Source: a virus. Taken from it: DNA of 28,737 bases. Positions 156-14,715 of the stretch are shown in pieces; the first letter of the stretch is position 1, and every line of letters begins with the position of its first letter. Both the position numbers and the translations under genes were made by a program. The notes beneath the pieces are model-generated. The model saw nothing but the letters and a program-made list of their open reading frames with translations. It was not told where the DNA came from and searched no databases. The stretch lies in IMG/VR virus record IMGVR_UViG_3300009514_001427; one strand, written 5' to 3'.

Positions 156-183
156 TTGACATTTATTGTGTATGTGGTATACT
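156..183 (+). promoter_or_regulatory. sigma70 promoter P1 (TTGACA-16-TGgTATACT)
   Basis: TTGACA at 156-161 and TATACT at 178-183 with TGG immediately upstream. Member of a 33-copy family. Confidence 0.7.
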
Positions 184-430: not shown

Positions 431-717
431 GGTATTACGTGAGGGCGGAGGACGGAGACATCTGGGGACCGATGTCTAAGGACGAAGCAGAGGGGATGCG
501 AGATCAACTGGATGATGCGCTGATCTTCCCTGAGACCATTTTTGAGCAGAGGGTGGTCACGGGTTCAGTCGAAGGCGGAGTGTTAGATTTCGACTCAGTT
601 CCTGCTGGAGTTGAGGTACAGATCAATGACTACGATACCGATGGAGTTGATGAGGACCGCCTCTCAGAAGATGAAGACGGTCGTCTCTGTGTTCAGAGCG
701 TTTACGGCAGGGAATAA
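427..717 (+). CDS. hypothetical acidic protein, 96 aa
   Basis: ATGA overlap with the upstream stop; GGAG at 414-417. Confidence 0.5.
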   Translation: MRYYVRAEDGDIWGPMSKDEAEGMRDQLDDALIFPETIFEQRVVTGSVEGGVLDFDSVPAGVEVQINDYDTDGVDEDRLSEDEDGRLCVQSVYGRE

Positions 718-1690
718 GAAGCTGAAACTTTCTTCGCTCATCGGATTAACCCGGGAGAAGAGGAAAGCTCGACTTCTGATTCGGGCTTGTCTTCACTCGG
801 GGGAGATGTTTCCACATACGCTGTTGTACGGTGTGGGTGGGACAGGTAAGACTGAGTTTGCTCGTCGCATTGGCAATGAACTCAGCTGTCATTTCGTGGA
901 GACACACGCGGCTGCCTTTAAGAAGCGGGAGGTCTTATTTTCCGCGCTGATTGATCATTCCAACGAAGCTCGTAGGCAGGGCAAGCCTCTGCTGCTCTTC
1001 ATTGATGAGATTCATCGTTTGAGTTTAGTCCTTCAGGAGGGCTTGTATCAGGCTATGAAGGAGTGGTGGATTCCGACTCCGGGTGGAAAGCTCCGCCTGG
1101 CTCCTTTCACTTTGATTGGTGCAACGACTCGGTTCGATATGTTGGACTCGAATTCTTTCGTCACGCGATTTGAGAATGTTTGGGAGATTCAGAGGTACAA
1201 GGTTGACGAGATCGCGATCATTGTTGCTGATGAACTCAGCAGACATAAGATGCGCTTCAGCGCTGAGGTGGCGACAGACATAGCCAAGCGGTGCCTGGGT
1301 ATTCCTCGTACTGCCATTAATCTGGCCAACAAAGTTCGGCGAGCGGCTCAAGCTGCTGGTCAATCTGAAATAACGTTACAGCATTGCTGTACGACATTTG
1401 CTTTGGAGCAGATCGATGCTCTTGGGCTTCAGCATGTCCATCACAGGTACTTGGAGATCCTCTACGCGACTCGTGTAGATGGGCATTTTAGTCCTTTGGG
1501 CGTAGGGGCTATAGCTGCTAAGATGCGTCAACCTGAAGATGTGATTAAGGGCAGCGTGGAACCGATCCTGCTGGAGCTTGATTTCGTAGCGCCTACACCC
1601 AGAGGTAGAATGATGACTCGCAAGGGTGCCGAATATTTTTCTTCCTTGGGGCTTGACATTTCGAACGGATGTGGTAGACTACGTGCATGA
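626..1690 (+). CDS. ruvB: RuvB-like AAA+ ATPase (Holliday-junction branch-migration ATPase family)
   Basis: Walker A GVGGTGKT, Walker B LLLFIDEIHRL, PFTLIGATTR and a C-terminal EPILLELDFVAPTPRGRMMT winged-helix region all match RuvB motifs recalled from memory. First ATG is at 626 (the track begins at TTG 611); the start is uncertain and 671 is also possible. It overlaps the preceding gene. Confidence 0.85.
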   Translation: MTTIPMELMRTASQKMKTVVSVFRAFTAGNKKLKLSSLIGLTREKRKARLLIRACLHSGEMFPHTLLYGVGGTGKTEFARRIGNELSCHFVETHAAAFKKREVLFSALIDHSNEARRQGKPLLLFIDEIHRLSLVLQEGLYQAMKEWWIPTPGGKLRLAPFTLIGATTRFDMLDSNSFVTRFENVWEIQRYKVDEIAIIVADELSRHKMRFSAEVATDIAKRCLGIPRTAINLANKVRRAAQAAGQSEITLQHCCTTFALEQIDALGLQHVHHRYLEILYATRVDGHFSPLGVGAIAAKMRQPEDVIKGSVEPILLELDFVAPTPRGRMMTRKGAEYFSSLGLDISNGCGRLRA

Positions 1691-1748
1691 TGAGCTTGGG
1701 TTTGGTCCTGAGCTAGATGAAACTCTCAGTTGGATGGAGATACGAGCA

Positions 1749-3185
1749 ATGGCAAAAGCGAAGTCAGCCAAGAAGGCGAAACGCAAGGCATCGGTCAAGA
1801 AGAACAAGACCCCTGCCTTGTCCTGTCCCAACATTGTCGATTTGCGGACCCCGCATTCGACGGAATCGAGTGGGCGTCTTGCCTCCGCATTCACCACGTT
1901 TGCCGAGAAGGTAGCGGCGTGGAAAGCGGAAGTCCGCAAGCATTTTGCGGGTGGGGGCAAGGCGTCTGATCTGCCTCAGTTTGAGGCGAAGCATTTCCTC
2001 GATGCCAACAAGGGCATCATGTCTCAGAAAGCATTTGACAAGCTGGTCGATGCTTGGAATGACAGTGACGGCGTTGTTTTCCCGCCTCGCTACAACCCTG
2101 TCCTTGTGGATTTGATCCACGAGATGAACGCGACCTCGATTCGTCGTGGTTTGCTCTCGAAGCATCCTCGCCAGCCGTCCAATTGGGACGAGAAGCAGTG
2201 GGGTCCGTGGAATCTGCTGGATGAGGACGGGGAGCATACCATCCCGTCTGGCTGGTTCTTTGACAAGGCGATGCCTCGTCGTTGTCACGCCGAGACTGCC
2301 GAGAAGCTGGTCGAGGATCACGCCAAGAACATTCTCACGTTTGGCAACAACCGTTACGTTGTGGGCGACGGTACGACCGTCCGTTGCTCCCCGATGCTTG
2401 TTTGGGCGACGGCTCGTGGCAACTACCGCGCGGGTGATTCGGCTCGCAAGCGTATGTCCATCGCTGGCAACAAGGATGTCACCGACGTTGTTTTCCGCGT
2501 CGAGGATCGTCCCAACAACGGTGGTGGCGTCACGGTCAAGGGCAATTGGGGTGACATTGCCGAGTTGGTATTCCTCCCCGGACAGGCGTTGACGGCAGGT
2601 TTCCTGTTTGACGCCAAGGGCAAGCGTCTGACTGCCAAGGCGATTCGGGCGTTGGATGGCGATACCAAGGGGTTGAAGTTCAAGACGGTACGTCAGGTCT
2701 TGGACGGTCCCATCGTCGGCAAGGCGATTACCCGCGACAAGTTGTGGGCAGAGATTCAGACCATCGAGGGCAACAAGGGCATCAAGCGTCTCCGCGAGCG
2801 TGAGGGGCGTAGCGAGTCTGAGGAAGTTGATTCGACGCCTCAGAACAAGACGATGACCAACCTCAAGGTCACGACGCGCGTCTCTCCGAATGAGGCTTTC
2901 CCGTTTGGTTTGCGGGCTGCCCAATGTGATATGGTCCCGTACATCATCAACGATGAAGAGGGCGATTTCTTGATGGGCATCGTGATTGGGGATCGCTCGA
3001 ATCTGGACCACAACGTCGGCGTGAACGAAGCCAAGGCGGAAGTCGAGGAAGTCGAGGAAGTCGAAGAGACTCCCGCTCCGAAGAAGTCCCGCAAGAAGAA
3101 GCCTTCGGATGCGGCTCCCCCTGTCGAGTCTGATACGTCGGACGACGAAGCGGAAGTCGAGGAAGAGGAAACGGTCGAGGCGTAA
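1749..3185 (+). CDS. hypothetical protein with a lysine/alanine-rich N-terminal tail (MAKAKSAKKAKRK…) and an acidic EVEE-repeat C-terminus
   Basis: The long ORF 1626..3185 starts at GTG. ATG 1749 has GGAG at 1735-1738. The 415-aa antisense ORF is judged spurious. Confidence 0.7.
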   Translation: MAKAKSAKKAKRKASVKKNKTPALSCPNIVDLRTPHSTESSGRLASAFTTFAEKVAAWKAEVRKHFAGGGKASDLPQFEAKHFLDANKGIMSQKAFDKLVDAWNDSDGVVFPPRYNPVLVDLIHEMNATSIRRGLLSKHPRQPSNWDEKQWGPWNLLDEDGEHTIPSGWFFDKAMPRRCHAETAEKLVEDHAKNILTFGNNRYVVGDGTTVRCSPMLVWATARGNYRAGDSARKRMSIAGNKDVTDVVFRVEDRPNNGGGVTVKGNWGDIAELVFLPGQALTAGFLFDAKGKRLTAKAIRALDGDTKGLKFKTVRQVLDGPIVGKAITRDKLWAEIQTIEGNKGIKRLREREGRSESEEVDSTPQNKTMTNLKVTTRVSPNEAFPFGLRAAQCDMVPYIINDEEGDFLMGIVIGDRSNLDHNVGVNEAKAEVEEVEEVEETPAPKKSRKKKPSDAAPPVESDTSDDEAEVEEEETVEA

Positions 3186-3221
3186 GCGAGTTTGGTAATA
3201 CGACCATACGGGGTCGTTTCA

Positions 3222-3256
3222 GCCCGTCACCTTTAGGGGTGGCGGGCTTTTTTTAT
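3222..3256 (+). terminator. rho-independent terminator
   Basis: 10-bp stem gcccgtcacc/ggtggcgggc with one G-U pair and loop tttagg, followed by T8. Confidence 0.75.
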
Positions 3257-3274
3257 ATGAACCAACATTTTCCC

Positions 3275-3302
3275 TTGACATTTATTGCTCATGTGGTATA
3301 CT
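3275..3302 (+). promoter_or_regulatory. sigma70 promoter P2
   Basis: TTGACA 3275-3280, TATACT 3297-3302, family consensus. Confidence 0.7.
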
Positions 3303-3344
3303 CTAGGTGACGAGTTAGTTACTGGTTCACAAGGGAGAAAAACG

Positions 3345-5210
3345 ATGTCCAAAACCACCTTGACTTTTGAGGCTCACGAAGCCCTCATTATCAGCAACAT
3401 CGAGCGTCAAGCTGGCTCGGTTGGCAAGGCAATTCTTGAAGGGACGATGAATGGCATCGAAGCCTGTAACAAGGCGGATGTCTCACCCCAAGTCTGGATT
3501 CACTTCGATTCCAATGGAGCGGCTGTAGGCGAATCTGGAGCGGTCCTGCGGATCAAAGACCTTGGCTGTGGAATTCAGACGAAGCAAGAGATTCTGGATT
3601 GGTGGAAAACCTTTGGTACGCCTCACGCCGAATCCGAGAAAAAGATTTGGGCTAACTTCCGTATGGGGCGTGGGCAGTTATTCACCTACGGTCGCAACAT
3701 CTGGCGTACGGGGACGTTCCGTTTGGAGTATGACCACAATACTCCGCCTGTCGAGAGAAACTACGAATCTGACCAGCGTATCCAATTCGGATTGGAAGAG
3801 AATCTCGATGCGTTTGAAGGTTGTGAAATCGAGATTCACTTTTACAAGAATCCTGTTGGGCCTGGTGGTTCTTATGCTTCCGTTGAGGCATTGAAAGCTG
3901 ACGTAAAGCAGCAGATCGAATTCATGGAGGGAGCGATCTACTTCAATGACGAGCAGATCAATACTCCTGCGAGTTGTTGTAAGTGGGATGACGAGACGGA
4001 CGATGCCTACTTCCTGTGGGGCATTGGTACGGAGCTAACGGTCTACAACATCGGGGCGTACGTTTGTGGTTACTCGATCAGCCGCATGGGCGTTAGTGGC
4101 ATCGTGGTATCGAAGAAACAGATGCGTTTGAATTACCCGCGCAATGCGGTCATGCAAGATGCCTGTCCGATTTGGCGAGACATTCGTGACATCGTGGATT
4201 CCAAAAAGGTCACGAAGATTCGAGCGACATCGCGTCGATTGGAGTATGACGAGAAGGTTGCGAATCTCATTGATTTGCGTGATGGGAAATGCACTCTTAA
4301 AGACATTAACGGCGTTGGTTTGTTGGAAACATCTAGTGGCAAGGCTATGTCACTTCCTGCCTGCAAGTCTATTCGTTCTCATTGGACGTTTGCTCCCAAG
4401 GGCGACATGGTTGCGGATCAGCTTATGCAAGCTGGCAATGCCGTTTGCTTGTCAGACAAAGTTTTGCGGGAAATGAATTATACTGGCGATCCTGCTGGAT
4501 TCTTCGAGTATCTATTGCAGGAGGAAATCCGCAAGGCTCAGCCACGTTGGAGCGATGATACTGATAAGAATCGGGTACTCAAGGCGTGGAAGCATCTACG
4601 CAAGCTGTATCGTCCGTTTGATTCTGGTTGTGACGATGACCTATGCAATCAGTACAACCGCCAGCATACGATCATTCCAACGGAGAAGCTGTCGAAGTTT
4701 GAGCGTCGAGTCATTCGGGTCTTGTCGGCTTATGATTGTTGGCAAGGTCGTACCATCGTGATTGGTCTTAGCGATTGCTACAACGGTTGGACCGATGGAG
4801 ATTCTTACATTGCGATCAACCGCAAATACTTGAAGCGTAACTCCCCGAATTACTATCATGGAGCGTCGGCTATCGTCACGCTAATGTTTCATGAGTTGGC
4901 TCACGACGAAGATAATACCGAGACAGACGTTCATGGTCTTGAGTTTTACAAGGCGTATCATGACCTTACTCGTCATGGGAATACATGGATGATCGCAGAC
5001 ATCTACGAGAAGTTGAAAGCTGCTAAGGTCGAAGATTACGATGAAGAGCAGAAGGCGAAAGCTGCCAAGGCGAAAGAGAAGCGTGACAAGAAACTGCGGG
5101 TAGCTGCTGCCTTGAAGCCGAAAAAGGTGGCGGCGTCGATCACTCACAAGCCGACGAAGAAAGCGGCTCCCAAGACGGCTAAGAAAAAGCGTCGAGTTCG
5201 CAGATTTTAG
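3345..5210 (+). CDS. GHKL-type ATPase domain protein with a C-terminal HExxH motif and a lysine-rich H1-like tail
   Basis: N-box EALIISNIE/EGTMNGIEA, G1 box IKDLGCGI and G2 FRMGRGQLFTYG are consistent with a Bergerat fold. FHELAHDE gives an HExxH motif. The C-terminus is KAKAAKAKEKRDKK…KPKKVAA…KKKRRVRRF. AAGGGAG at 3331-3337 precedes ATG 3345. Confidence 0.75.
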   Translation: MSKTTLTFEAHEALIISNIERQAGSVGKAILEGTMNGIEACNKADVSPQVWIHFDSNGAAVGESGAVLRIKDLGCGIQTKQEILDWWKTFGTPHAESEKKIWANFRMGRGQLFTYGRNIWRTGTFRLEYDHNTPPVERNYESDQRIQFGLEENLDAFEGCEIEIHFYKNPVGPGGSYASVEALKADVKQQIEFMEGAIYFNDEQINTPASCCKWDDETDDAYFLWGIGTELTVYNIGAYVCGYSISRMGVSGIVVSKKQMRLNYPRNAVMQDACPIWRDIRDIVDSKKVTKIRATSRRLEYDEKVANLIDLRDGKCTLKDINGVGLLETSSGKAMSLPACKSIRSHWTFAPKGDMVADQLMQAGNAVCLSDKVLREMNYTGDPAGFFEYLLQEEIRKAQPRWSDDTDKNRVLKAWKHLRKLYRPFDSGCDDDLCNQYNRQHTIIPTEKLSKFERRVIRVLSAYDCWQGRTIVIGLSDCYNGWTDGDSYIAINRKYLKRNSPNYYHGASAIVTLMFHELAHDEDNTETDVHGLEFYKAYHDLTRHGNTWMIADIYEKLKAAKVEDYDEEQKAKAAKAKEKRDKKLRVAAALKPKKVAASITHKPTKKAAPKTAKKKRRVRRF

Positions 5211-5213: not shown

Positions 5214-5241
5214 TTGACATTTATTCAGGATGGAGTATACT
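5214..5241 (+). promoter_or_regulatory. sigma70 promoter P3 (TTGACA-16-TATACT), leaderless
   Basis: TTGACA 5214-5219 and TATACT 5236-5241; the ATG lies 7 nt downstream. Confidence 0.65.
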
Positions 5242-5247
5242 TTAGGC

Positions 5248-5793
5248 ATGACAGATAACACACCCAAACCGAGAGTCGTCATCATCAAGGCTCGCGTACC
5301 TGATTTTTACGAGGGCGCGGATGTCGCGGCAATCGAAGTCACCGAGGATTTGATCCTCATGCTGGACAAGCGTATTGCTCAGACGAAGCGGATGTTTGAG
5401 CAGGATTTCTACGGTACTCGTTGGTGGAGCTACGCCCCGTATTTCGTCCGCTCTGCTGGTCCTGAGACATTTGGCATTCAGATGAGCGAGGAGGACTTCG
5501 AGGCGGCTCTGGATGCAAATGGGTGGGTCGAGGTTCCGGAGGATAGTGATTACGACCCTGCGGAGGATGATTATGCTCCGATAGATACTCTGCTGTTGCA
5601 GATTGGGGCTGTCCTCACGGCGAATGATACCACGTTTGCTGGATGGCAGTGGACTGGTTATGACAAGTACATCGGGGATAGCGCTCGCGTCACGACCTAT
5701 GAGATGGCAGAAGCCACCGTTGACGAGTGGGCTGAGTTGATTGGCTGCACTGAGAAGCTGCGACAGGTACGCAGGCTAAGGGGAGTGAGATGA
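5248..5793 (+). CDS. hypothetical protein, 181 aa, leaderless start
   Basis: ATG 5248 sits 7 nt after the -10 with no SD. It is in frame within ORF 5230..5793. Confidence 0.6.
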   Translation: MTDNTPKPRVVIIKARVPDFYEGADVAAIEVTEDLILMLDKRIAQTKRMFEQDFYGTRWWSYAPYFVRSAGPETFGIQMSEEDFEAALDANGWVEVPEDSDYDPAEDDYAPIDTLLLQIGAVLTANDTTFAGWQWTGYDKYIGDSARVTTYEMAEATVDEWAELIGCTEKLRQVRRLRGVR

Positions 5794-5990
5794 AGGTCAC
5801 AGTAGAGATAGCCGAGATCCATAAATCTATCCGCGAAATTGAAGTTCCGGATGGAGCGACGGATGCAGAGATACGCGCCCTGGCTGAGAAGGACGCAGGT
5901 CAGGCGAATGAGCTTAACTTGGAGTACAGTGACACTCTGCCTGCCGAGCAATGGACGATCCGCAAAGAAAACGGGGATCATATCGCTTGA
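5790..5990 (+). CDS. hypothetical protein, 66 aa
   Basis: ATGA overlap; GGGGAGTGAG RBS. The stop TGA lies inside the next -35 (gcTTGAca). Confidence 0.55.
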   Translation: MKVTVEIAEIHKSIREIEVPDGATDAEIRALAEKDAGQANELNLEYSDTLPAEQWTIRKENGDHIA

Positions 5991-6014
5991 CATTTATTCG
6001 CCATGTGGTATACT
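5987..6014 (+). promoter_or_regulatory. sigma70 promoter P4
   Basis: TTGACA 5987-5992, TATACT 6009-6014. Confidence 0.7.
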
Positions 6015-6034
6015 TACACTGAAAGGAGGCACTG

Positions 6035-6253
6035 ATGCCGGGACCAGAATTTCATCAAACAGGATACGGGCGAGCATTCTTTGAGGGGCAGTTGCCCGCA
6101 CTGATTAGGAATCTCGCACTGCTTACCAACAAGCAAACAGCATGTAACCTTCTTGCCGCAGGAGTTCTCGCGGGCAATGAAAACATGACGGCGGATGGGG
6201 CTGCTCGACGCGCCATCGAGACCTACGAGACCATCGAGAGGAAGTTGAGCTAA
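6035..6253 (+). CDS. hypothetical protein, 72 aa
   Basis: AAGGAGG at 6022-6028 with 6-nt spacing to ATG 6035. Confidence 0.6.
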   Translation: MPGPEFHQTGYGRAFFEGQLPALIRNLALLTNKQTACNLLAAGVLAGNENMTADGAARRAIETYETIERKLS

Positions 6254-6756
6254 TGTACGTCGTAGTTGTCAACGAAGATAACATTCTGCGTGAAGTGGTT
6301 TGCGTCACCAAAGATGCGAAGGTGGCTGAGGATCATTTCCTTGATGCCTGCAAGACCAATAGCAGTAATTGGGATGAGTATGAAATCGAGGATGTGGCTG
6401 CCTTTCTAGAAGATGCGTATTACCAGTTTGGCAATCAGGCTGTCGTACTGATGGATGTCTCGAACGTCAAGAGTGACGCCGAGATACTGGCTGAGCTTGC
6501 CAAGACGCCACCACCGGGCGTCCACAAAATCACCAACTGGATTCGCTCAGGAGAGATTGGCGAAGTCGATACCATCGAGGAAGTGATCGGTCGAGCAGGA
6601 ACCCTACTGGACAAAGCCTGTTCGCATGAAATCTTCGGCGATGTGGTATTTGGGGCTGAGGATGGCAAGGTCTACGTCTTGACCTGCGAGGGACAAGTGG
6701 GTCTTATCGCCAAGGATTACCTTGAACAGATCAGAGATGAGGATAACGATGGCTAA
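6253..6756 (+). CDS. hypothetical protein, 167 aa
   Basis: taATG overlap with the upstream stop; GAGG RBS. Confidence 0.6.
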   Translation: MYVVVVNEDNILREVVCVTKDAKVAEDHFLDACKTNSSNWDEYEIEDVAAFLEDAYYQFGNQAVVLMDVSNVKSDAEILAELAKTPPPGVHKITNWIRSGEIGEVDTIEEVIGRAGTLLDKACSHEIFGDVVFGAEDGKVYVLTCEGQVGLIAKDYLEQIRDEDNDG

Positions 6757-7246
6757 CCGAGTTCCATTAGAATTCACATGCCCGAAATGTGGTGAGCATC
6801 GCATCGAAGAAGTCATGGCAGATGTTGTTGTGGCCTCACGAGTTTGGCTGGCTCAGAACGCAGATGGCAGCGATCCCAGTTACGATCACGGAGAGCAAAC
6901 CAATGAGGGAGGGCACGTTGATCGCTACCAATGTGGAAACTGTGGTTGGACGATCATCAACGATGGGGGCGCTTACGAGAGATATACTCAGGACGGCTTG
7001 GATGGAGACGCCTTGATCGCTCGCATTAAGGCGATGAATGCCCAGAGAGACCTAGAAAATCCGGTCAGCCATGAGGAATTGGTTCTACGCATTGCCGACT
7101 CGTTTTCAGAGATGGACGGCGAGTCTTTGGCAGAGGTTTGGAACATGAACCTCTGTCCCAACAACCCGGTGAAGTATGTAGGAGACAGTATGTATGAGTG
7201 GGTCCAAGAAGATGCGTCCCCTGGAAGTGGCGGTAGCGAAGGGTGA
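6749..7246 (+). CDS. zinc-ribbon protein (CPKCG…CGNCG), 165 aa
   Basis: ATG 6749 with GAGGA at 6738-6742, in frame within ORF 6722..7246. Two CxxC pairs. Confidence 0.6.
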   Translation: MANRVPLEFTCPKCGEHRIEEVMADVVVASRVWLAQNADGSDPSYDHGEQTNEGGHVDRYQCGNCGWTIINDGGAYERYTQDGLDGDALIARIKAMNAQRDLENPVSHEELVLRIADSFSEMDGESLAEVWNMNLCPNNPVKYVGDSMYEWVQEDASPGSGGSEG

Positions 7247-7412
7247 TTACACATGGTACGCAGGCGTCTTTATAGAGATACCTGATGAGACCCCGGAGGA
7301 CAAAATCGAGGCTGCTGCGCTAGAAATAGTCCTGGCGCATCCCTGTTGTCAGGGTGAAGAGATAGCTCACGTTTGGGTGTATAATAGCATGGAGGATTCG
7401 CGGCCAGAATAA
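7194..7412 (+). CDS. hypothetical protein, 72 aa
   Basis: AGGAGA at 7181-7186 precedes ATG 7194. It overlaps the previous gene by ~50 nt. Confidence 0.45.
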   Translation: MSGSKKMRPLEVAVAKGDYTWYAGVFIEIPDETPEDKIEAAALEIVLAHPCCQGEEIAHVWVYNSMEDSRPE

Positions 7413-7426
7413 TTTCAACAAACCGC

Positions 7427-7454
7427 TTGACATTTCGGTAGCATGTGGTATACT
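7427..7454 (+). promoter_or_regulatory. sigma70 promoter P5
   Basis: TTGACA 7427-7432, TATACT 7449-7454. Confidence 0.7.
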
Positions 7455-7498
7455 TCATGCAGAGTTGGACAAGCGAACTACTGAAACGGAGCCAAAGC

Positions 7499-7831
7499 AT
7501 GAAAGTATTCCAGAACATCCAAACCAAACGCAAGGGTCTACGTTGTCCGATCCGAGTGATGAATCATTCGGGCGATGACATTCTCACCACCTACGATACG
7601 GCGGTCGAAGATTCGGTCGCTGTCGCCACGAAAGACCTACAGGACTTTTGGGGTCAATGCGTCGATGAGTTTGCGGGTCGTGGTACGTCGCTCAAACCGA
7701 CCGTCGCGGGCAAGCGTATCGGCTCGACCGATTTCGACCTACTCACAGGGTCCGAGATTGAGTCGCCCGAATTCGACGTGGGCTTGTTTGAGGAAATTCT
7801 GATTCAACCTGTCCCGCTCAGTGGCGGGTAA
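7499..7831 (+). CDS. hypothetical protein, 110 aa
   Basis: GGAG at 7488-7491 with 7-nt spacing to ATG 7499. The track ORF's earlier start lies before the TSS. Confidence 0.55.
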   Translation: MKVFQNIQTKRKGLRCPIRVMNHSGDDILTTYDTAVEDSVAVATKDLQDFWGQCVDEFAGRGTSLKPTVAGKRIGSTDFDLLTGSEIESPEFDVGLFEEILIQPVPLSGG

Positions 7832-7917
7832 CGAGACAGAGCGAGTGATGGACTGCCGCAACCGGGATTAGGTCTACGAAACCGGGGACGTTATGGATAG
7901 CTCGCTCACAAACGGCT

Positions 7918-7985
7918 GGGGCGACAACGGCGTAACGGAGTAGCTTCCGGGTGACGGGTAAGCCCGAAGCGAACCGGGTCGCCCC
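7918..7985 (+). other. 68-nt structured element closed by a perfect 8-bp stem (ggggcgac…gtcgcccc) with an internal cggg-taag-cccg hairpin
   Basis: The inverted repeat is seen directly. It does not fold into a tRNA cloverleaf, having no GTTC T-loop and no D-arm. It is followed by ATTTTT and might be a 3'UTR structure or a small RNA. Confidence 0.3.
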
Positions 7986-8009
7986 GCCTACATTTTTGAG
8001 AGAATCGCC

Positions 8010-8276
8010 ATGCCTACCAAATGTACGCGCCCTGTCTATCGAGAAACTCACGGTGGAATTTTAGAACGTGGCAAGACGCGCCCTGTTATTGTCTCAGTTG
8101 AACCACCGAATGTCATTGGTTTTCGTCTGAAGGGGATGAGGACCACCTACTATCTCACGGCTGAAGGCTGTTTCATGCAAGCAGTGAAAGCCAAGATCGC
8201 TCAGGACAAGAAGGACAAGGCTAAAGCCAAGGGCAAGAAGTCACGCAAACGGAGTGTGACTCGTGGAATAGTTTAG
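8010..8276 (+). CDS. hypothetical small basic protein, 88 aa (C-terminal KKDKAKAKGKKSRKR)
   Basis: ORF with a weak GAGAG RBS. Confidence 0.5.
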   Translation: MPTKCTRPVYRETHGGILERGKTRPVIVSVEPPNVIGFRLKGMRTTYYLTAEGCFMQAVKAKIAQDKKDKAKAKGKKSRKRSVTRGIV

Positions 8277-8290
8277 TTCTGATTTTCTAC

Positions 8291-8318
8291 TTGACATTTC
8301 CTGTGGCCATGGTATACT
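8291..8318 (+). promoter_or_regulatory. sigma70 promoter P6 (class II, TTGACATTTCCTGTGGCCATGGTATACT), leaderless
   Basis: TTGACA 8291-8296, TATACT 8313-8318; ATG at +7. Confidence 0.7.
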
Positions 8319-8324
8319 ATAGGC

Positions 8325-9338
8325 ATGAAAGTTACCTATGAGCTAACCATGAATGAAGATGCCGTAACGGTTATCTCGGCTAAATGCCAGTTGCCGTTGT
8401 ACGGTCGATGGACCGAATTGGTCGTCACGTCTTACGCTCTGCATGAGCGTGACTTCACAACGATGACCGCAGTGAATTTCGGTTTCCGAGCTATCCCGAA
8501 TTCGGAAGTTCGTGGTGACACGTTTGATGCCTCTCAGAATGGTATGCTCAATCTGTCGCGTGGCAAAGGGGCGATGCGACAGCAATTCCAGCAAGCCCTT
8601 CACGTACCGAACATCGTCGGTAATTTGCTCGACTACTCAGACCTGAATGACGGTGGAGTACCCGCTGGCAGGACCGTGACTGGTTCAATTTTGCGGCGAA
8701 TTGAATCCATCGTCGAAACGGCGCGTCAACGTATTCGGGACAATATGTCCACTGATCCCGAAGTACGCGCGATGACGTTGAATCTGATTGATGAGCGTTA
8801 CGGCGATGCAACCGCTAAGGCTATCACAGGTTTTCTTGGCCAGATAGACTGGAAATTGATGCTCGCTAAGTCGGGCTGCGATGATGACCAGTTGAATGTG
8901 GTCGAATTCGCTATGGGGCATAATCCCCCGCGTTTCCACAAGATTCACGATGAGCCAAGCGTTGACATTCCGCTGATCGCATCGGCTCCGCTGAATCGGT
9001 TTGATAGGGCGACGATAGCGAATATCAAAGCTACGGCATTACTCCGCAACGTCTGTGGTGAGAAGCTATTCAATGAGTTTGAATCGACGGGTCAGATAAC
9101 GGTCAATGAGCAAGGCTACGAATTCGTTATCAAACCGGGTGAATTCGTCGGGACTACTGATCCTAACGGCAAGACGGCTCGCCTCTGCATCCATACGATT
9201 GGGTTTCAATGCAACCCGATTGATGAGGTTGTGATAGCGTTTCTGCATATTCGCCACAAGCTCGCGGCGTATCTGCATGAAGCGATTGTCCATAGTCCGC
9301 AACAGGGATTTACGACAAAACTTGCAAAAGCCGCTTGA
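8325..9338 (+). CDS. hypothetical protein, 337 aa
   Basis: Leaderless ATG 6-7 nt after the -10. The stop TGA lies inside the next -35. Confidence 0.7.
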   Translation: MKVTYELTMNEDAVTVISAKCQLPLYGRWTELVVTSYALHERDFTTMTAVNFGFRAIPNSEVRGDTFDASQNGMLNLSRGKGAMRQQFQQALHVPNIVGNLLDYSDLNDGGVPAGRTVTGSILRRIESIVETARQRIRDNMSTDPEVRAMTLNLIDERYGDATAKAITGFLGQIDWKLMLAKSGCDDDQLNVVEFAMGHNPPRFHKIHDEPSVDIPLIASAPLNRFDRATIANIKATALLRNVCGEKLFNEFESTGQITVNEQGYEFVIKPGEFVGTTDPNGKTARLCIHTIGFQCNPIDEVVIAFLHIRHKLAAYLHEAIVHSPQQGFTTKLAKAA

Positions 9339-9362
9339 CATTTATTGTCGATGTGGTATACT
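9335..9362 (+). promoter_or_regulatory. sigma70 promoter P7
   Basis: TTGACA 9335-9340, TATACT 9357-9362. Confidence 0.7.
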
Positions 9363-9397
9363 TAGTGCATTGGAGGGGTGATGAATTGGAGATTGGT

Positions 9398-9601
9398 ATG
9401 GCTAACAGCGTTGATGACAATAGCCCTATGGTGAAGCTCGCCGAAGCGATCTTAGATGATCCGCACGGCATAAGCGAAGAAGCGCTGGAAGCTCTCAAGG
9501 CGGCTTTTGGTTCACGTCCCTGTCCACGATTCGAGAAGATGCTAGGAGCTATCGAGGGCACTGACGGTCGCGTCTACTTACCGGAGGATTGGGATGCCTG
9601 A
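9398..9601 (+). CDS. hypothetical protein, 67 aa
   Basis: GGAG at 9387-9390 precedes ATG 9398. The track ORF 9335.. begins inside the promoter. Confidence 0.5.
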   Translation: MANSVDDNSPMVKLAEAILDDPHGISEEALEALKAAFGSRPCPRFEKMLGAIEGTDGRVYLPEDWDA

Positions 9602-10166
9602 CAGATATAACGCTTCAATCCGAATCGGTGGTACGATTGACAGAACCACCGACAGTCAATGCGATCCCGAGATGAGCGCTTTGAATGTGATGCTCGCCAT
9701 GATAAACGGTGCCGATGTTTCTCACGAGTGGGGAGATGCGGTGGCTGTGATCTGCGAGGGCGAGGACGATGAGTTGTTGCAGTACACCAATGATAACGGC
9801 TTGCTCGAATTCAAAGGAGAATCCGTAATCAATGGTGAGTTCGACGAGCTAGAAACATTTCTCCGCGAGCATGACATTCCGTACAACAGAAGCACCTGCG
9901 CGTATGGAGGGTATCTGGGCGAGGATGTCTACTGGATGCCTGGGATGGAGCAACCCCTGGTTATCCTGGGCGACGATCATGGGACGGATTACGTATCTAG
10001 AGAGGACATAAGCATCCTGTTGCATACGCTCAAGGAGGGGCGAGATGCGGATACGTTTGTGGACATGGCGCGTGAGTTGGTGCATACCGCTATCGAGAAG
10101 CTCGAAGAAGTTTGTCCTGATCCTCCCGACATTCCACCGTTCAAGATTGTCGGGGAAAAGCCTTGA
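9594..10166 (+). CDS. hypothetical protein, 190 aa
   Basis: GGAGG at 9581-9585; ATGccTGA overlap; stop inside the next -35. Confidence 0.65.
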   Translation: MPDRYNASIRIGGTIDRTTDSQCDPEMSALNVMLAMINGADVSHEWGDAVAVICEGEDDELLQYTNDNGLLEFKGESVINGEFDELETFLREHDIPYNRSTCAYGGYLGEDVYWMPGMEQPLVILGDDHGTDYVSREDISILLHTLKEGRDADTFVDMARELVHTAIEKLEEVCPDPPDIPPFKIVGEKP

Positions 10167-10190
10167 CATTTATTCCTCATGTGGTATACT
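10163..10190 (+). promoter_or_regulatory. sigma70 promoter P8, leaderless
   Basis: TTGACA 10163-10168, TATACT 10185-10190, ATG at 10197. Confidence 0.7.
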
Positions 10191-10196
10191 TAGGAC

Positions 10197-10478
10197 ATGG
10201 CAAAGGAAAAGATAGTTTGCAAGGAATGTGGCAGCGAGGAAGTACGCCGAGATGCTTTCGCTTCATGGGATGTGGACAAACAAGAGTGGGTTCTTCACGC
10301 CATATACGATCACTTCGTCTGCGACAGTGACGAGTGTAACGGAGAGCCTTGTGACATAAAGACAATCGAGGGCAAGGCGGGAGATTCGTCGAGCAACGAT
10401 CCGTTTGTGGCGAGCGGTAGCTCCGAGTCTCCCGCCTTGGAGCAGTTAGCTCCATTGGTCGGAGTGGGAAAGAATTAA
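10197..10478 (+). CDS. zinc-ribbon protein (CKECG…CDSDEC), 93 aa
   Basis: Leaderless ATG. Confidence 0.6.
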   Translation: MAKEKIVCKECGSEEVRRDAFASWDVDKQEWVLHAIYDHFVCDSDECNGEPCDIKTIEGKAGDSSSNDPFVASGSSESPALEQLAPLVGVGKN

Positions 10479-10493
10479 ACGCGACAAATTGGC

Positions 10494-10522
10494 TTGACTT
10501 TTACTCGCGTGTAAAGTATATT
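10494..10522 (+). promoter_or_regulatory. sigma70 promoter P9 (TTGACT-17-TATATT), drives a non-coding transcript
   Basis: TTGACT 10494-10499, TATATT 10517-10522. Confidence 0.5.
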
Positions 10523-10639
10523 CTCAGTGTGGGACGCTTCTCTTTCTTCACTGTGACATGATCGCACGCATGTCACAGCCCGTAAGGCGCGAGAGCGGGT
10601 CAACGGAACTGTTTGGGAGGTTCTTCATCCTGCACTGAT

Positions 10640-10651
10640 CTGAAATAAGCC
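10640..10651 (+). repeat. CTGAAATAAGCC motif, copy 1 of 8
   Basis: Exact 12-mer. Confidence 0.6.
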
Positions 10652-10720
10652 CAGACTACCTGCGAAAGTGGGCTCCAGTCTCTCCGATCCAAGAGATGCC
10701 ATAATCCGCGTCGGATCAAA

Positions 10721-10758
10721 ATGCCGTCCGTACGGGCAAATACGGGCGGCATTTTTTC
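10721..10758 (+). terminator. rho-independent terminator
   Basis: atgccg-t-ccgta / tacgg-g-cggcat gives a 12-bp stem with one U-G pair and loop cgggcaaa, followed by T6. Confidence 0.75.
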
Positions 10759-10770
10759 TTGGCCTTTTAC

Positions 10771-10798
10771 TTGACATTTCGTTGGGCCGTGGTATACT
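10771..10798 (+). promoter_or_regulatory. sigma70 promoter P10 (class II)
   Basis: TTGACA 10771-10776, TATACT 10793-10798. Confidence 0.7.
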
Positions 10799-10836
10799 CT
10801 AGACAGTTGGAGGAAACTCGAACCAACAGGAGACAA

Positions 10837-11853
10837 ATGATGGTAGCAGCAGTCAGTACACGACATAATGCCTTGGACAGCTTTGGGTCAACTGTCCGCA
10901 ACAAGAAAGACCCGTATGAAGCCATGAGGAAGGCTAAGGGGCTGTTTGGACTCAAGAAGATGTCCCTTGCTGAATTCTCTGGTACGCCTGCCAACCCCGA
11001 CTTACACGTCGTGGTCCGTACCGATACGGGTGAGGCTATCGGTCAAGTCGGCAACAACTACGAGGTTTTCCCGAACGAGTCATTCTTCGGACCAACAGCA
11101 GAAGCGCTGGTTGAAGCGGGAGCCGAGATCACTAAGTTCCAAATGCTGGATCGTGGGACGCGGTCTTTCATGCGTCTTGCCTGGCCAGACGATGCCAACC
11201 TGCGCATCGGCAAGCCCAAAGTCGGCGACATTGTGGGTCGTCGCGCAACACTCTCCACATCACATGACGGCAAGTACGCAGGCAAGTTCACGCTCATGAT
11301 GCTTCGCCTTGCCTGTGAGAATGGGATGACCGTCCCAGTCGGCAGCTTCGACATGAATATGTTTCATACCGTGGGCGGCAAGCAGCAGCTTGTTGAGTTG
11401 AGCAACATGATCCCCACCGTTGAGACATACGTCCGTCAGTTTCAGGTTGCCGCAGACATGATGGCGGAAGTCCCTGTGAAGGCTGGCAGTGACTTGGCGA
11501 TGAAAATCATCGGCAAGGTTGCTGACCCCAAGGGTGGAGCCAAGGATACTTCGGGTGGAACCCCGAATCTCGCCAAGTCTCGCGTCATGCGCATTGCTGA
11601 GCTTTTCGAGGGAGAGCAACCGCAGGCAGACAATGTGGCGATCAAGGATACTGGCTGGGGTCTTTATAATGCTTGCGTGGACTTTTTCACGCATGACAAG
11701 GGGACTCGTGGACAGAACGAATCGGAGCGGTTGGAGCAGCGTTTTAAGAGCTTGCTTCCGGGTGGACCTGCCCAGCGAGAGATCGTACGGGCATGGGGCG
11801 TCGTGACAGATGGATTGGGGGTCAGTAACGCAATTGCCGCAGCAGTAAACTAA
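10837..11853 (+). CDS. hypothetical protein ~338 aa; resembles the DUF932/TIGR03299 phage/plasmid-related family (from memory; motif STSHDGKYAG)
   Basis: AGGAG at 10828-10832 with tandem ATGs at 10837 and 10840. The track ORF begins upstream inside the promoter. Confidence 0.7.
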   Translation: MMVAAVSTRHNALDSFGSTVRNKKDPYEAMRKAKGLFGLKKMSLAEFSGTPANPDLHVVVRTDTGEAIGQVGNNYEVFPNESFFGPTAEALVEAGAEITKFQMLDRGTRSFMRLAWPDDANLRIGKPKVGDIVGRRATLSTSHDGKYAGKFTLMMLRLACENGMTVPVGSFDMNMFHTVGGKQQLVELSNMIPTVETYVRQFQVAADMMAEVPVKAGSDLAMKIIGKVADPKGGAKDTSGGTPNLAKSRVMRIAELFEGEQPQADNVAIKDTGWGLYNACVDFFTHDKGTRGQNESERLEQRFKSLLPGGPAQREIVRAWGVVTDGLGVSNAIAAAVN

Positions 11854-11878
11854 AGCGGCGACAGCGTTACGACCAAGG

Positions 11879-11912
11879 GGACCGGCTCCGGAGGGGGAGT
11901 CGGTCCTTTCTT
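11879..11912 (+). terminator. rho-independent terminator
   Basis: 11-bp stem ggaccggctcc/ggagtcggtcc with one G-U pair and loop ggaggg, followed by TTTCTT. Confidence 0.6.
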
Positions 11913-11921
11913 GGTTCAGGA

Positions 11922-11933
11922 CTGAAATAACTC
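11922..11933 (+). repeat. CTGAAATAAcTC motif variant, copy 2
   Basis: 9/12 core CTGAAATAA. Sits directly after the terminator at 11879-11912. Confidence 0.4.
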
Positions 11934-11965
11934 GCGGATAATTGAATGCTGGCCAAAGATTCTGC

Positions 11966-11993
11966 TTGACATTTATTGCTCATGTGGTATACT
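11966..11993 (+). promoter_or_regulatory. sigma70 promoter P11, leaderless
   Basis: TTGACA 11966-11971, TATACT 11988-11993, ATG at 12000 (+7). Confidence 0.7.
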
Positions 11994-11999
11994 ATAGAC

Positions 12000-12155
12000 A
12001 TGAGAGAGCAAACCACCCCAATCTTATGGGAACGACTCAAGACCTTGCGAGAGAAACTTGCTCGCTTGGTCAGAGCAGGTAAACGTGGCAAGCTCAGAGA
12101 CTGGCGTGAATACAATCTCGTAGCCCGCGTCATTATGCGACGGAGAAAAGCCTAA
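12000..12155 (+). CDS. small basic protein, 51 aa (MREQTTPILWERLKTLREKLARLVRAGKRGKLRDWREYNLVARVIMRRRKA)
   Basis: Leaderless ATG at +7 from the -10. The stop TAA overlaps the next ATG (taATG). It falls below the track's length cutoff. Confidence 0.45.
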   Translation: MREQTTPILWERLKTLREKLARLVRAGKRGKLRDWREYNLVARVIMRRRKA

Positions 12156-12460
12156 TGCCTAAACCAGAATTCAAAACCGAGTGGGAAAGCGATACATACG
12201 ACAAGGCACACGAAGCCATGTCTGCACTGCTCAACCTTGCCAACGGCATGGGCAGTAGCAAGGCAGTGGTAGCAGGTATGCTCGATGGATTCCTCAGCGA
12301 GCACCGTACACTGCAACAGGCAGGAGTACGCAACTTCGTGGGTATGCTTAAGGAGTGGACGAAGTTTAGCGAGCCTGCTATGACAGACCTGCGTAACCAG
12401 GATGCGTGGAAATTCGCAAAGCAGGTTGTCGAGCTTGACCCAATGTTTGCGAATGTTTAG
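12155..12460 (+). CDS. hypothetical protein, 101 aa
   Basis: GGAG at 12142-12145; taATG coupling. Confidence 0.6.
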   Translation: MPKPEFKTEWESDTYDKAHEAMSALLNLANGMGSSKAVVAGMLDGFLSEHRTLQQAGVRNFVGMLKEWTKFSEPAMTDLRNQDAWKFAKQVVELDPMFANV

Positions 12461-12471
12461 TCCATTTCTTC

Positions 12472-12499
12472 TTGACATTTCTTGTGGCCGTGGTATACT
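12472..12499 (+). promoter_or_regulatory. sigma70 promoter P12 (class II, with upstream TTTCTTC), leaderless
   Basis: TTGACA 12472-12477, TATACT 12494-12499, ATG 12506. Confidence 0.7.
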
Positions 12500-12505
12500 A
12501 TAGAC

Positions 12506-12823
12506 ATGAACGACAACAAGACAATCGACGAAGCGGCTCAGGCAATCGACGATCACCAGTCGATGGTCGAATCCCGCACCGATAGGGAAATCTTCGCGGA
12601 GATGAATGAGATGGACCAGCCCAAAGTAACGGACTTCACCACAACCGTACCAGCAGAAAAGAGCGGCTTCGATGTCCGCGTGAAACTGGATAGCCGATGG
12701 GTCACAGTCGGCAATCATCCTACCCGCGAAGATGCAGAGCGAGCGGAATTGGCTCTTAGCCAAGTGATGATCGAATACAGGACCAAGCGCAACGCATGGG
12801 AGAACAGCCATGCCAACAGTTAG
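12506..12823 (+). CDS. hypothetical protein, 105 aa
   Basis: Leaderless ATG; in frame with track ORF 12482..12823. Confidence 0.6.
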   Translation: MNDNKTIDEAAQAIDDHQSMVESRTDREIFAEMNEMDQPKVTDFTTTVPAEKSGFDVRVKLDSRWVTVGNHPTREDAERAELALSQVMIEYRTKRNAWENSHANS

Positions 12824-12829
12824 AGCGAC

Positions 12830-12857
12830 TTGACATTTCCGCTCTATGAGGTATACT
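12830..12857 (+). promoter_or_regulatory. sigma70 promoter P13, leaderless
   Basis: TTGACA 12830-12835, TATACT 12852-12857, ATG 12864 (+7). Confidence 0.7.
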
Positions 12858-12863
12858 AAAACT

Positions 12864-13088
12864 ATGGGACTAACAGTTGACAAGAAAGACTCGCCTCAAG
12901 CTGAGCGAATCATTAACGCGGGCAAAGAAATAACCAAACTGGTCCGCGAAACGGTCTATGCTGACCGACATTCAAGAAACTGTGCTACCGGGGCGCATCC
13001 CAATCGCTGGACGGATGCAGCGAGGAAACGGGATGACGCCGTGAAGTTTTTGAAGGAGCGACTGCAACAAATAGCAGAAGAAATCTGA
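12864..13088 (+). CDS. hypothetical protein, 74 aa
   Basis: Leaderless ATG in frame in ORF 12846..13088. Confidence 0.55.
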   Translation: MGLTVDKKDSPQAERIINAGKEITKLVRETVYADRHSRNCATGAHPNRWTDAARKRDDAVKFLKERLQQIAEEI

Positions 13089-13097
13089 ACAAACTGC

Positions 13098-13125
13098 TTG
13101 ACATTTATCCCTGATGTGGTATACT
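13098..13125 (+). promoter_or_regulatory. sigma70 promoter P14
   Basis: TTGACA 13098-13103, TATACT 13120-13125. Followed by the conserved leader ggtaacgacggcaagttacttgAAGGGAGCTAAAAATG. Confidence 0.7.
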
Positions 13126-13163
13126 TTGGGTAACGACGGCAAGTTACTTGAAGGGAGCTAAAA

Positions 13164-13625
13164 ATGCCACAAATCAGACGAGATGAAATGGTCGTGGGAA
13201 TGCAGGCGGTTAAAACCGTCCAGTCCGCAACTTGGAGACGCCGTGGCGATAAGGTCGTCAACCGTTGCGTCAACTGTGAGTCTGAGACAGCCACCCATGA
13301 GGGCGAGCGATTCTGCAACCACTGCAACTGCTTTGTCCCAACGTACAAGAGTACGGAAGCTGCCGAGGGCGATCTTGTCACGATGCAGTTTATTCCCCGT
13401 ATCAATCCCAACGGGACCAAAAACTGGACCCCCGCTGGCGGTGAATGCTTCGGCGTAGCAACCAGAGCAGAGGCAGACGCGATCAAGCGTAAGCATGGTC
13501 TGGTTGGCGTCCTCAAGATGTCCGAGACTGCCACTGGCGACATGCGGGCTTTGCCACGAGTTATCCCGGTGGATGATGTGGTGACATGGAAAGCCGAGGG
13601 AGTAGAATACGAAGTAGTCGATTGA
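13164..13625 (+). CDS. zinc-ribbon protein (CVNCESETATHEGERFCNHCNC), 153 aa; paralog of the gene at 22006..22506
   Basis: AAGGGAG at 13151-13157. The two paralogs share MQAVKTVQS.TWRRR.DK.V.RCV.CE.ETATH.G.RFCN.C, MQFIPKINP.GTKNWTPAGG and a …EGVEY.VVD C-terminus. Confidence 0.7.
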   Translation: MPQIRRDEMVVGMQAVKTVQSATWRRRGDKVVNRCVNCESETATHEGERFCNHCNCFVPTYKSTEAAEGDLVTMQFIPRINPNGTKNWTPAGGECFGVATRAEADAIKRKHGLVGVLKMSETATGDMRALPRVIPVDDVVTWKAEGVEYEVVD

Positions 13626-13716
13626 AACTATGGGAGCGTAGGAGAAGCAGGGTAGGCGTACGCAACGCCCTGTGGCGACCGATATGTGATATACGGCACT
13701 GTTGGCAGGACGCTGC

Positions 13717-13728
13717 CAGAAATAAGCA
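13717..13728 (+). repeat. CAGAAATAAGCA motif variant, copy 3
   Basis: 10/12 match. Confidence 0.45.
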
Positions 13729-13931
13729 GTGCAATGTGGGGTTGGCACCCACCGCTCCCAGCCAGAACGCGTCAGAGTTGGCACGGTTCTAGAACGTGTA
13801 ACCGAAGGCATTCGGTGATGGGCATTGCGTAGGATAGGTGGGAGGCGCTGATACCTGCATTCCGGTGTAGATGAGCCATCCTTGAAATACCACCCTTTGC
13901 CCGGCAACTCTTATTTTTGTTCATTTTCTTC

Positions 13932-13959
13932 TTGACATTTCTCCTGGCCGTGGTATACT
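13932..13959 (+). promoter_or_regulatory. sigma70 promoter P15 (class II: gttcattttcttcTTGACATTTCTCCTGGCCGTGGTATACT)
   Basis: TTGACA 13932-13937, TATACT 13954-13959. Confidence 0.7.
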
Positions 13960-13977
13960 ATAGGCAGAAGGGAGACA

Positions 13978-14280: not shown

Positions 14281-14284
14281 CAAA

Positions 14285-14464
14285 ATGCTAGAACGAGTTG
14301 CCAACCTGTTAAGCGGAGTTACACTAGAAGAAGACCCTGAAGGTCTGCTATTGCTCAACCTTGTTGTTCAGATGCAAGAGCATCCAGAAATCGACTGGAC
14401 CATCGACAAAATCAACACCGTCGTTACTGAGTTTCAAGGGTCGCTTGACGAGATGGAGGAGTAA
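14285..14464 (+). CDS. hypothetical protein, 59 aa
   Basis: GGAG at 14273-14276 precedes ATG 14285, in frame in ORF 14045..14464. Confidence 0.45.
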   Translation: MLERVANLLSGVTLEEDPEGLLLLNLVVQMQEHPEIDWTIDKINTVVTEFQGSLDEMEE

Positions 14465-14694: not shown

Positions 14695-14715
14695 GTAGGT
14701 AGAAAGGACGAAACG

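Follow-up and report, generated by a model that had tools for sequence, protein, structure and literature searches.

RuvB is a textbook motor that depends on its partner RuvA, and the eukaryotic proteases of the SprT/WLM type cooperate with the AAA+ ATPase Cdc48/p97. ArdC has a Spartan-like protease domain and acts in the recipient cell against restriction (PMC7213743). The locus described here lies in a 28,737-nucleotide stretch of DNA, IMG/VR virus record IMGVR_UViG_3300009514_001427, the whole of which is referred to as the window. It comprises three neighboring genes: gene 1, which encodes a RuvB-like ATPase, gene 2, which encodes an orphan protein with charged ends, and gene 3, which encodes a GHKL ATPase fused to a small zincin domain and a basic tail. 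A preliminary reading of the sequence (the first-pass annotation) had placed three open reading frames (ORFs) on the plus strand at the positions given in Table 1, and these are confirmed.

The locus is a tight pair, genes 1 and 2, with a frequent but separable neighbor, gene 3, and is not a single operon. The features that set it apart from described systems are (i) the missing RuvA-docking hairpin of the gene 1 clade, (ii) the constant association of that clade with gene 2, and (iii) the fusion architecture of gene 3, which is found on many sequenced plasmids. Tentatively, the two units are proposed to remodel the DNA of the element that encodes them.

Table 1. Coordinates of the genes, domains, and control elements of the locus and of other annotated genes in the window
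Feature	Position	Strand	Remarks
Sigma-70-type promoter TTGACA-16-TATACT, extended -10	156..183	+	Heads a small-ORF unit that ends with the RuvB-like gene
Gene 1, RuvB-family AAA+ ATPase of a mobile-element clade	626..1690	+	Pfam, NCBIfam, and PDB matches; alignment with cellular RuvB
Gene 2 own promoter TTGACA-16-TAGACT	1653..1680	+	Within the 3′ end of gene 1
Gene 2, orphan 478-aa protein	1749..3185	+	Basic N-tail 1-27, folded core ~28-440, acidic/mixed C-tail
Intrinsic terminator	3221..3248	+	Between genes 2 and 3; 12-bp stem, 8 G-C pairs, T7 tail
Gene 3 own promoter TTGACA-16-TATACT	3275..3302	+	
Gene 3, Bergerat-fold (GHKL) ATPase domain	3345..3974	+	Residues 1-~210; boundary approximate
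Gene 3, middle region	3975..4655	+	Residues ~211-437; boundaries approximate; Foldseek against PDB
Gene 3, small zincin domain	4656..4979	+	Residues ~438-545; SprT/WLM-like three-histidine pattern
Gene 3, long helix and disordered K/R-rich tail	4980..5210	+	Ends in KKKRRVRRF
Gene 4, acidic neighbor protein	5248..5793	+	tblastn 27-28% identity in L004, L010, L011
DUF932 protein	10759-11853		
ArdC anti-restriction protein	22734-23672		ArdC-N and MPTase-PolyVal; PHROG anti-restriction 2e-74
HD-domain protein	24191-24814		
S-adenosylmethionine (SAM) methyltransferase	25100-25771	-	

RuvB-like ATPase

The product of gene 1 matches the Pfam families RuvB_N (3.4e-20), AAA_lid_4 (4.6e-7), and RuvB_C, the winged-helix domain (9.9e-14), and aligns with solved RuvB structures at an E value of 4e-39, which bears out the RuvB signatures noticed in the first-pass annotation. 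It scores under both NCBIfam cut-offs for RuvB equivalogs (NF000868 and TIGR00635), with 195.4 bits vs 282 and 168.8 vs 299. Its homologs form about 100 clusters at 40-86% identity, all of them metagenomic, after which the list falls to cellular RuvB at 33-36%. In an alignment of 14 clade members with six cellular RuvB proteins, the residues of Walker A and B, sensor 1, the arginine finger, and sensor 2 are invariant (K75, D127/E128, T167/T168, R181, and R228). The Walker motifs had initially been described as divergent; this holds for Walker A, which is GVGGTGKT where RuvB has GPPGLGKT, but not for Walker B, which is kept as DEIH.

All aligned clade members carry a 7-residue insertion ahead of Walker B, and eight residues are missing from the β-hairpin that lies between Walker B and sensor 1, where LDIIIGKGPSARSVRLDL becomes IPT--------PGGKLRL. 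The β-hairpin of the RuvB N domain recruits domain III of RuvA (PMC10272136). No RuvA or RuvC domain was detected in the 30 scanned ORFs of the window, in agreement with the first-pass annotation, and the genes called at the related loci include neither ruvA nor ruvC. A host ruvB operon is ruled out by the distinct clade, the missing ruvA and ruvC, and the mobile-element context. By its domain matches and alignment, gene 1 is a true RuvB homolog of a separate mobile-element clade. A known defense system is ruled out as well, with PADLOC returning only weak P-loop-level matches for gene 1 (IetA, 1e-5 over 30 residues) and no match for genes 2, 3, and 4.

The start codon of gene 1 may be ATG 626, ATG 671, or GTG 686. 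ATG 626 has GAGG upstream, but would overlap the ORF at 427-717 by 92 nt. Homologs of 305-335 aa suggest a start near 671-686.

Orphan Partner of the RuvB-like ATPase

Gene 2 encodes a protein with oppositely charged ends, as had been noted at first: lysine and arginine make up 37% of the N-terminal 27 residues, and aspartate and glutamate 38% of the C-terminal 53. The C-terminal tail also holds a conserved motif, DAAPPVExDT. Pfam, PHROG, NCBIfam, and PADLOC searches gave no match with the protein itself, with 32 aligned relatives, or with 10 distant representatives. Searching 1.84 billion cluster representatives with a profile yielded only 113, and no relative was found in GTDB species genomes or in IMG/VR.

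The AlphaFold model of gene 2 is confident (predicted local distance difference test, pLDDT, 85; predicted template modeling score, pTM, 0.81) except for residues 1-14 and 440-478, and Foldseek matched it to nothing at E<1. Winged-helix domains are the sole likeness of the protein to solved structures, and the modeled core contains a winged-helix-like element. The invariant residues are either structural (Pro, Gly, Trp, and Tyr) or basic/polar (R177, H180, R351, R354, N371, and R377), and the alignment contains no acidic catalytic residue sets. Two candidate identities were rejected. RuvA is defined by an OB-fold domain I, a helix-hairpin-helix domain II, and a RuvB-binding domain III, an arrangement that gene 2 does not show; neither does it have the ~80-residue GH5 winged-helix globular domain with long lysine-rich flanking tails that characterizes the linker histones H1/H5.

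GHKL ATPase-Zincin Fusion

The first-pass annotation described gene 3 as a Bergerat ATPase joined to an HExxH zincin and a basic tail, and the family alignment (39 sequences, 36-84% identity) upholds this description. The GHKL motifs E32, N36, D72, G74, G76, F105-R-M-G-R-G-Q111, and G159 are invariant in 39/39 members, as are WTDG and H516-E517-x-x-H520-x9-H530-G-x-E-F in the C-terminal part. The window protein itself stays below every Pfam threshold, and HATPase_c_3 is matched by 33/39 family members (best 6.9e-11). The family profile finds TRAP1 at 2e-4 and MutL at 0.02. The structural model has a pLDDT of 82.7, with residues 587-621 below 50. When its N-terminal and middle regions were compared with PDB using Foldseek, the matches were the TRAP1 N-M region (3.7e-13), MORC2 (1.2e-7), MORC4 (2.8e-6), and topoisomerase (topo) VI-B (2e-5), and also Hsc82 and HtpG.

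Six of the 39 family members match Pfam WLM (best E 1.6e-3). A profile of the zincin domain compared with PDB gives proabylysin at 0.045, Spartan SprT at 0.17, and Schizosaccharomyces pombe WLM at 0.49, all over HExxH...HGxEF, and the HELAHDx..HGxEF segment of gene 3 aligns with HEMIH...HGPEF of Spartan. The final 76 residues are 34% lysine plus arginine. Their ending is common to the closer relatives, others end in RRMPxGA, and the tail is absent in distant members. Taken together, gene 3 is a GHKL ATPase with Hsp90/MORC-like N-terminal and middle regions, fused to an SprT/WLM-like zincin and a basic tail.

No search placed the protein in a characterized family, and several candidates were rejected. 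It is not an Hsp90 proper, given identities of 11-14%, a C-terminal third occupied by zincin and tail, and no match to an NCBIfam Hsp90/HtpG model. As MutL or topo VI-B proper, it lacks a defining feature in each case. Nor is it taken for a T4 rIIA-like GHKL protein (a lead from PMC7824862), since gene 3 has no PHROG match of any kind. As for ArdC, neither ArdC-N nor MPTase-PolyVal was found in gene 3, while the ArdC protein of the window has both. The first-pass annotation had not recognized the architecture; it is indeed uncharacterized, but proves to be common on sequenced plasmids.

Gene Linkage

Linkage was assessed by reading the DNA around homologs from independent samples and by tblastn with the window proteins, which gave 12 distinct loci: the window, L004-L007, L010/11, L012/13, L015, L034, L045, L046/47, and L048. 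The RuvB-like gene is followed downstream by gene 2 at all 12, with one to four small ORFs between them in some. The pair is kept at the edge of the clade, where identity is 42-44% for the RuvB-like protein and 26-29% for gene 2, and it is also present on a contig of a Chlamydiae metagenome-assembled genome (MAG) without the promoter motif shared by the other loci. Relatives of gene 2 were never seen without a RuvB-like gene. The GHKL gene stands third at 9/12 loci. The three-gene arrangement of the first-pass annotation thus recurs in other elements and is not due to chance. In the window it is not one transcription unit, since genes 2 and 3 have promoters of their own and are divided by a strong terminator, and the GHKL-zincin is not a fixed member, being mostly found without the other two genes.

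A search for GHKL family proteins gave 311 matches. Members are present in 28 GTDB genomes, which span many bacterial phyla, and on 190 PLSDB plasmids vs 2 phage records, usually without a RuvB-like neighbor. Its plasmid carriers include Pseudomonas aeruginosa, Acinetobacter, Aeromonas, and Xanthomonas, where the annotation is just "ATP-binding protein". On the Photobacterium plasmid pFPPDNB1-1 (L049, 9486-16289), the gene closes the run ssb - DUF2726 - thermonuclease - topB - GHKL, which lies upstream of an LPD7 protein and type IV secretion system (T4SS) genes. On the Xanthomonas plasmid pLMG930.1 (L050, 353-5272), it directly follows topB, at which the locus begins. The homologs on these Photobacterium and Xanthomonas plasmids are 768-812 aa long. 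In Mesorhizobium sp. SP-1A contig2 (L021, 633-12938), the order is Rep3, an unassigned gene, NurA, HerA, and GHKL, followed farther on by PhoH and RuvB, and in a Verrucomicrobiia MAG (L016, 1995-6581) the GHKL gene is followed by a 357-aa unknown, a RuvB-like gene with a different hairpin insertion, and a tyrosine integrase. These GHKL-zincin genes are more distant ones, and the association of GHKL and RuvB genes may recur outside the clade studied here.

Promoters and Early-Region Setting

The window is a one-directional array of genes, most of them small and unannotatable, with a guanine plus cytosine (G+C) content of ~51%. The motif TTGACA-N16-TAKACT has 26 exact matches that span 156-25057, where shuffled sequence gives 0. 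Twenty-five of these stereotyped promoters are on the plus strand, about one per gene (156, 1653, 3275, 5214, 5987, 7427 ... 22662), and the single minus-strand site is at 25030-25057. They have a common extended consensus, TTGACATTTATT....ATGTGGTATACT, or a variant ending in TGGCCGTGG, and the motif is also present in related loci of other metagenomes. A global repressor might use the conserved spacer as its operator, and zygotic induction would then be possible. With these 26 sigma-70 promoters and with ArdC and DUF932 downstream, the region looks like an early region, the setting suggested by the first-pass annotation. In L004, L006, L010, and L048, too, a DUF932 gene lies downstream of the module, 5-9 kb away.

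The promoters also bear on gene starts. Gene 2 has a GGAGA Shine-Dalgarno sequence 9 nt ahead of ATG 1749, and an equivalent promoter stands directly upstream of its homologs in L010-L013. The start of gene 3 at 3345 is supported by the alignment of homologs and by a GGGAG Shine-Dalgarno sequence 8 nt ahead of the ATG; an equivalent promoter lies upstream of the GHKL homologs in L005, L010, and L011. A longer ORF of gene 3 (641 aa) and the public call (639 aa) extend upstream over its own promoter. Mechanical ORFs and the public gene calls P0001/P0121 (639 aa for gene 3 and 500 aa for gene 2) are judged to start inside a promoter because their N-termini are the translated -10 region. At 3285-3344, 5230-5247, and 16481-16498, several long ORFs open with (W)YTLG or MWYTKG, the translation of the -10 region GTGGTATACT.

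Proposed Function and Alternatives

The explanation tentatively preferred here, which is possible rather than probable, is that two linked, early-expressed DNA-transaction units remodel the DNA of the element after entry or early in its cycle. The first unit would be the obligate pair of genes 1 and 2. Gene 1 is predicted to be a catalytically intact, hexameric double-stranded DNA translocase of the RuvB family that is deprived of the RuvA-docking hairpin, and gene 2, with its novel fold, winged-helix element, invariant Arg/His/Asn residues, and charged tails, would be its dedicated partner. We infer that the two products interact physically and that gene 2 takes the place of RuvA as the DNA-targeting and loading factor of the motor; docking may occur via the clade-specific EWWIPT surface of the motor or via the DAAPPVExDT tail motif of gene 2. 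The second unit would be the GHKL-zincin, which is separately transcribed and widespread on its own. It is envisaged to clamp or bind DNA under ATP control and to cleave proteins on that DNA, by analogy with the principle on which ArdC and Spartan/Wss1 work. Both units together would most likely act on branched or protein-laden element DNA just after entry or early; conceivable targets are restriction complexes, silencing proteins, recombination intermediates, or a covalently attached relaxase. The role in DNA remodeling, crosslink repair, or anti-defense suggested by the first-pass annotation is likewise plausible.

A narrower version of this proposal, in which the trio is a counter-defense or establishment machine, appears quite improbable. 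Here, host proteins on the incoming DNA would be swept up and destroyed by a DNA pump together with a DNA-bound protease that is gated by ATP. Such proteins might be restriction or Cas complexes, silencers, or the relaxase bound covalently to the DNA. Such a machine would be a bacterial mobile-element counterpart, by analogy, of crosslink proteolysis by Cdc48/p97 with Wss1/SPRTN.

Several observations weigh against the remodeling proposal. One family of related elements, which share the promoter motif and a downstream DUF932, accounts for most of the 12 loci, so the linkage count overstates the independent evidence and part of the synteny may be inherited, not selected. The trio need not act together, because a terminator and separate promoters set gene 2 apart from gene 3 and the GHKL-zincin is usually alone. 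The zincin assignment draws on an invariant motif and on weak profile scores (E 0.002-0.5), and gene 2 has neither an enzyme-like nor a RuvA-like signature, which makes "loader" just one option for it. The window contains no T4SS, relaxase, capsid, or terminase genes, and PADLOC, PHROGs, and literature searches gave no functional anchor.

The main rival to the remodeling proposal, and a somewhat unlikely one, assigns the pair to recombination or replication. The RuvB-like protein and gene 2 would branch-migrate Holliday junctions or reverse stalled forks in the service of recombination-dependent replication, multimer resolution, or repair, with gene 2 as a non-homologous RuvA analog and the GHKL-zincin as an unrelated neighbor. 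This is consistent with the closest homologs of gene 1 being true branch-migration motors whose catalytic and DNA-domain features it keeps in full, with the Mesorhizobium GHKL gene lying among NurA, HerA, PhoH, and RuvB, and with the position of plasmid GHKL genes beside topB and ssb, which are genes of DNA metabolism. Elements of 150-560 kb would also plausibly require junction processing of their own. Less likely than this rival are a role in replication initiation or helicase loading and plain non-functional synteny. The former is very improbable; here, gene 2 would act as an origin-binding initiator with winged-helix domains and the RuvB-like protein as its loader or remodeler, the analogy being with Orc/Cdc6 and the Rep proteins of plasmids.

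It is also unlikely that the three genes have no joint function and are independent accessory genes that travel together through shared element ancestry, their lysine-rich tails being generic nucleic-acid-binding or low-complexity appendages. The separate promoters and the terminator would suit such an origin, as would the GHKL gene standing alone in most genomes, on plasmids, and on three huge IMG/VR contigs, the tails that vary or are absent in distant members, and the wider synteny (gene 4 and DUF932) that is also kept among the closest relatives. It accounts poorly, however, for an order of RuvB-like gene and gene 2 that is the same at all 12 loci, even where identity falls to 26% and the small ORFs in between differ, for the pair in a Chlamydiae MAG whose contig lacks the promoter motif, and for relatives of gene 2 that were never seen apart from the RuvB-like gene. 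The loss of the RuvA-binding hairpin, moreover, demands a substitute partner.

Element Type and Neighboring Genes

In character, the element is closer to a plasmid or ICE (integrative and conjugative element) than to a phage. A phage origin is disfavored by IMG/VR searches that returned no member of the RuvB-like clade and no relative of gene 2, and by the predominance of plasmids over phage records in the GHKL family; as a counterpoint, the GHKL gene alone is present on three IMG/VR contigs of 300-460 kb. When the first 12 kb were compared with plasmids by Megablast, there were 0 matches. The proteins of the window belong to a 153-kb JGI contig. A bacterial host is indicated by the 26 consensus sigma-70 promoters with extended -10, the Shine-Dalgarno sequences, and the bacterial taxonomic spread. 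An archaeal host is judged unlikely, though two homologs occur in Asgard-labeled MAGs.

The metagenome contigs L004-L013 and L045-L048, which are 15-557 kb long, represent very large mobile elements that are unclassified and form a diverse family. Related elements carry Lar-like, PARP, ThiF, and KorA-like genes, and the arrays of these relatives also hold DnaJ, acetyltransferase, and sulfotransferase genes. NCBI GCA_004196315.1 and ENA ERZ23486238, which represent one metagenome and have contigs in common, hold the module in at least five divergent copies on separate contigs.

Gene 4, which follows gene 3 and may or may not belong to the module, has no family match; some related elements have a weakly conserved counterpart downstream of the GHKL gene. 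The promoter of gene 4 (5214-5241) covers ATG 5230, and translation probably starts at ATG 5248, ~7 nt past the -10, such that the mRNA may be leaderless.

Numerous small, strongly acidic proteins without a family match are encoded at 427-717, at 6253-6756, and by many ORFs at 5800-22000, and their composition recalls the DNA-mimic or inhibitor proteins of anti-restriction islands. The genes at 13164-13625 and 22006-22506 are paralogous (56% identity, E 8e-68) and mark a duplication inside the array; their products are small zinc-ribbon-type proteins (CxxC...CxxC), also without a family match. From ~24000 to 28737, the G+C content drops from ~0.51-0.54 to 0.44-0.49, the AT skew flips sign, and the GC skew reaches 0.25-0.32. 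The stereotyped plus-strand promoters end after 22662. This segment may be another module or an insertion.

Novelty and Significance

The domain superfamilies involved are all known. What appears to be undescribed, in the libraries and papers searched, is the RuvA-less RuvB clade with its obligate orphan partner, the gene 2 family, and the GHKL-zincin fusion; literature searches yielded no description of the clade or of the fusion. A RuvB clade that has lost the RuvA-docking hairpin and gained an unrelated obligate neighbor would illustrate how the target of an AAA+ DNA pump can be changed, and the gene 2 family, whose fold is unknown, would be given a role open to testing. In practical terms, the GHKL-zincin fusion may be more important, given its presence on 190 sequenced plasmids. 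Should it act as a DNA-directed protease when a plasmid becomes established, it has a bearing on plasmid host range and on how resistance plasmids spread, and if the counter-defense version were true, the stand-alone form on these plasmids would be an unrecognized ArdC-like host-range factor. The fusion is directly testable in cultivable hosts, with the Photobacterium and Xanthomonas plasmids being suited to genetics. The 26 near-identical promoters mark the uncultured 150-560 kb elements as an unusual, coordinately controlled expression system.

Comparison with Known Systems

Gene 1 resembles cellular RuvB in its AAA+ N domain, lid, and C-terminal winged helix and keeps the catalytic motifs at 33-36% identity. 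Its clade differs in the hairpin, which is eight residues shorter, in the seven additional residues before Walker B, in the absence of ruvA and ruvC, and in its constant pairing with an unrelated protein of 450-560 aa.

With Hsp90/TRAP1 and MORC, gene 3 has in common all four GHKL nucleotide-binding motifs and, according to the model, a superposable arrangement of N-terminal and middle regions. Identity is only 10-16%, however, and gene 3 is encoded by plasmids and mobile elements. It possesses neither the C-terminal dimerization domain of Hsp90 nor the CW and coiled-coil modules of MORC, with the zincin and the basic tail standing in their place.

The likeness to SprT/Spartan and Wss1 (WLM) lies in a small zincin, an HExxH motif with a third histidine followed by G-x-E-F, and adjoining basic sequence of a DNA-binding type. 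This similarity is at the level of motifs; the Zn-binding subdomain and the SHP/VIM and UBZ motifs were not seen in gene 3, which is instead fused to a GHKL ATPase. The neighboring AAA+ gene echoes the partnership of such proteases with Cdc48/p97, but it encodes a DNA pump and not an unfoldase. ArdC differs from gene 3 in its His-His-Glu set, where gene 3 has three histidines, and gene 3 adds an ATPase. In design, the two would nonetheless be analogous, each combining a nucleic-acid-directed module with a zincin in a protein that is made by a mobile element and active in the newly entered cell (PMC7213743).

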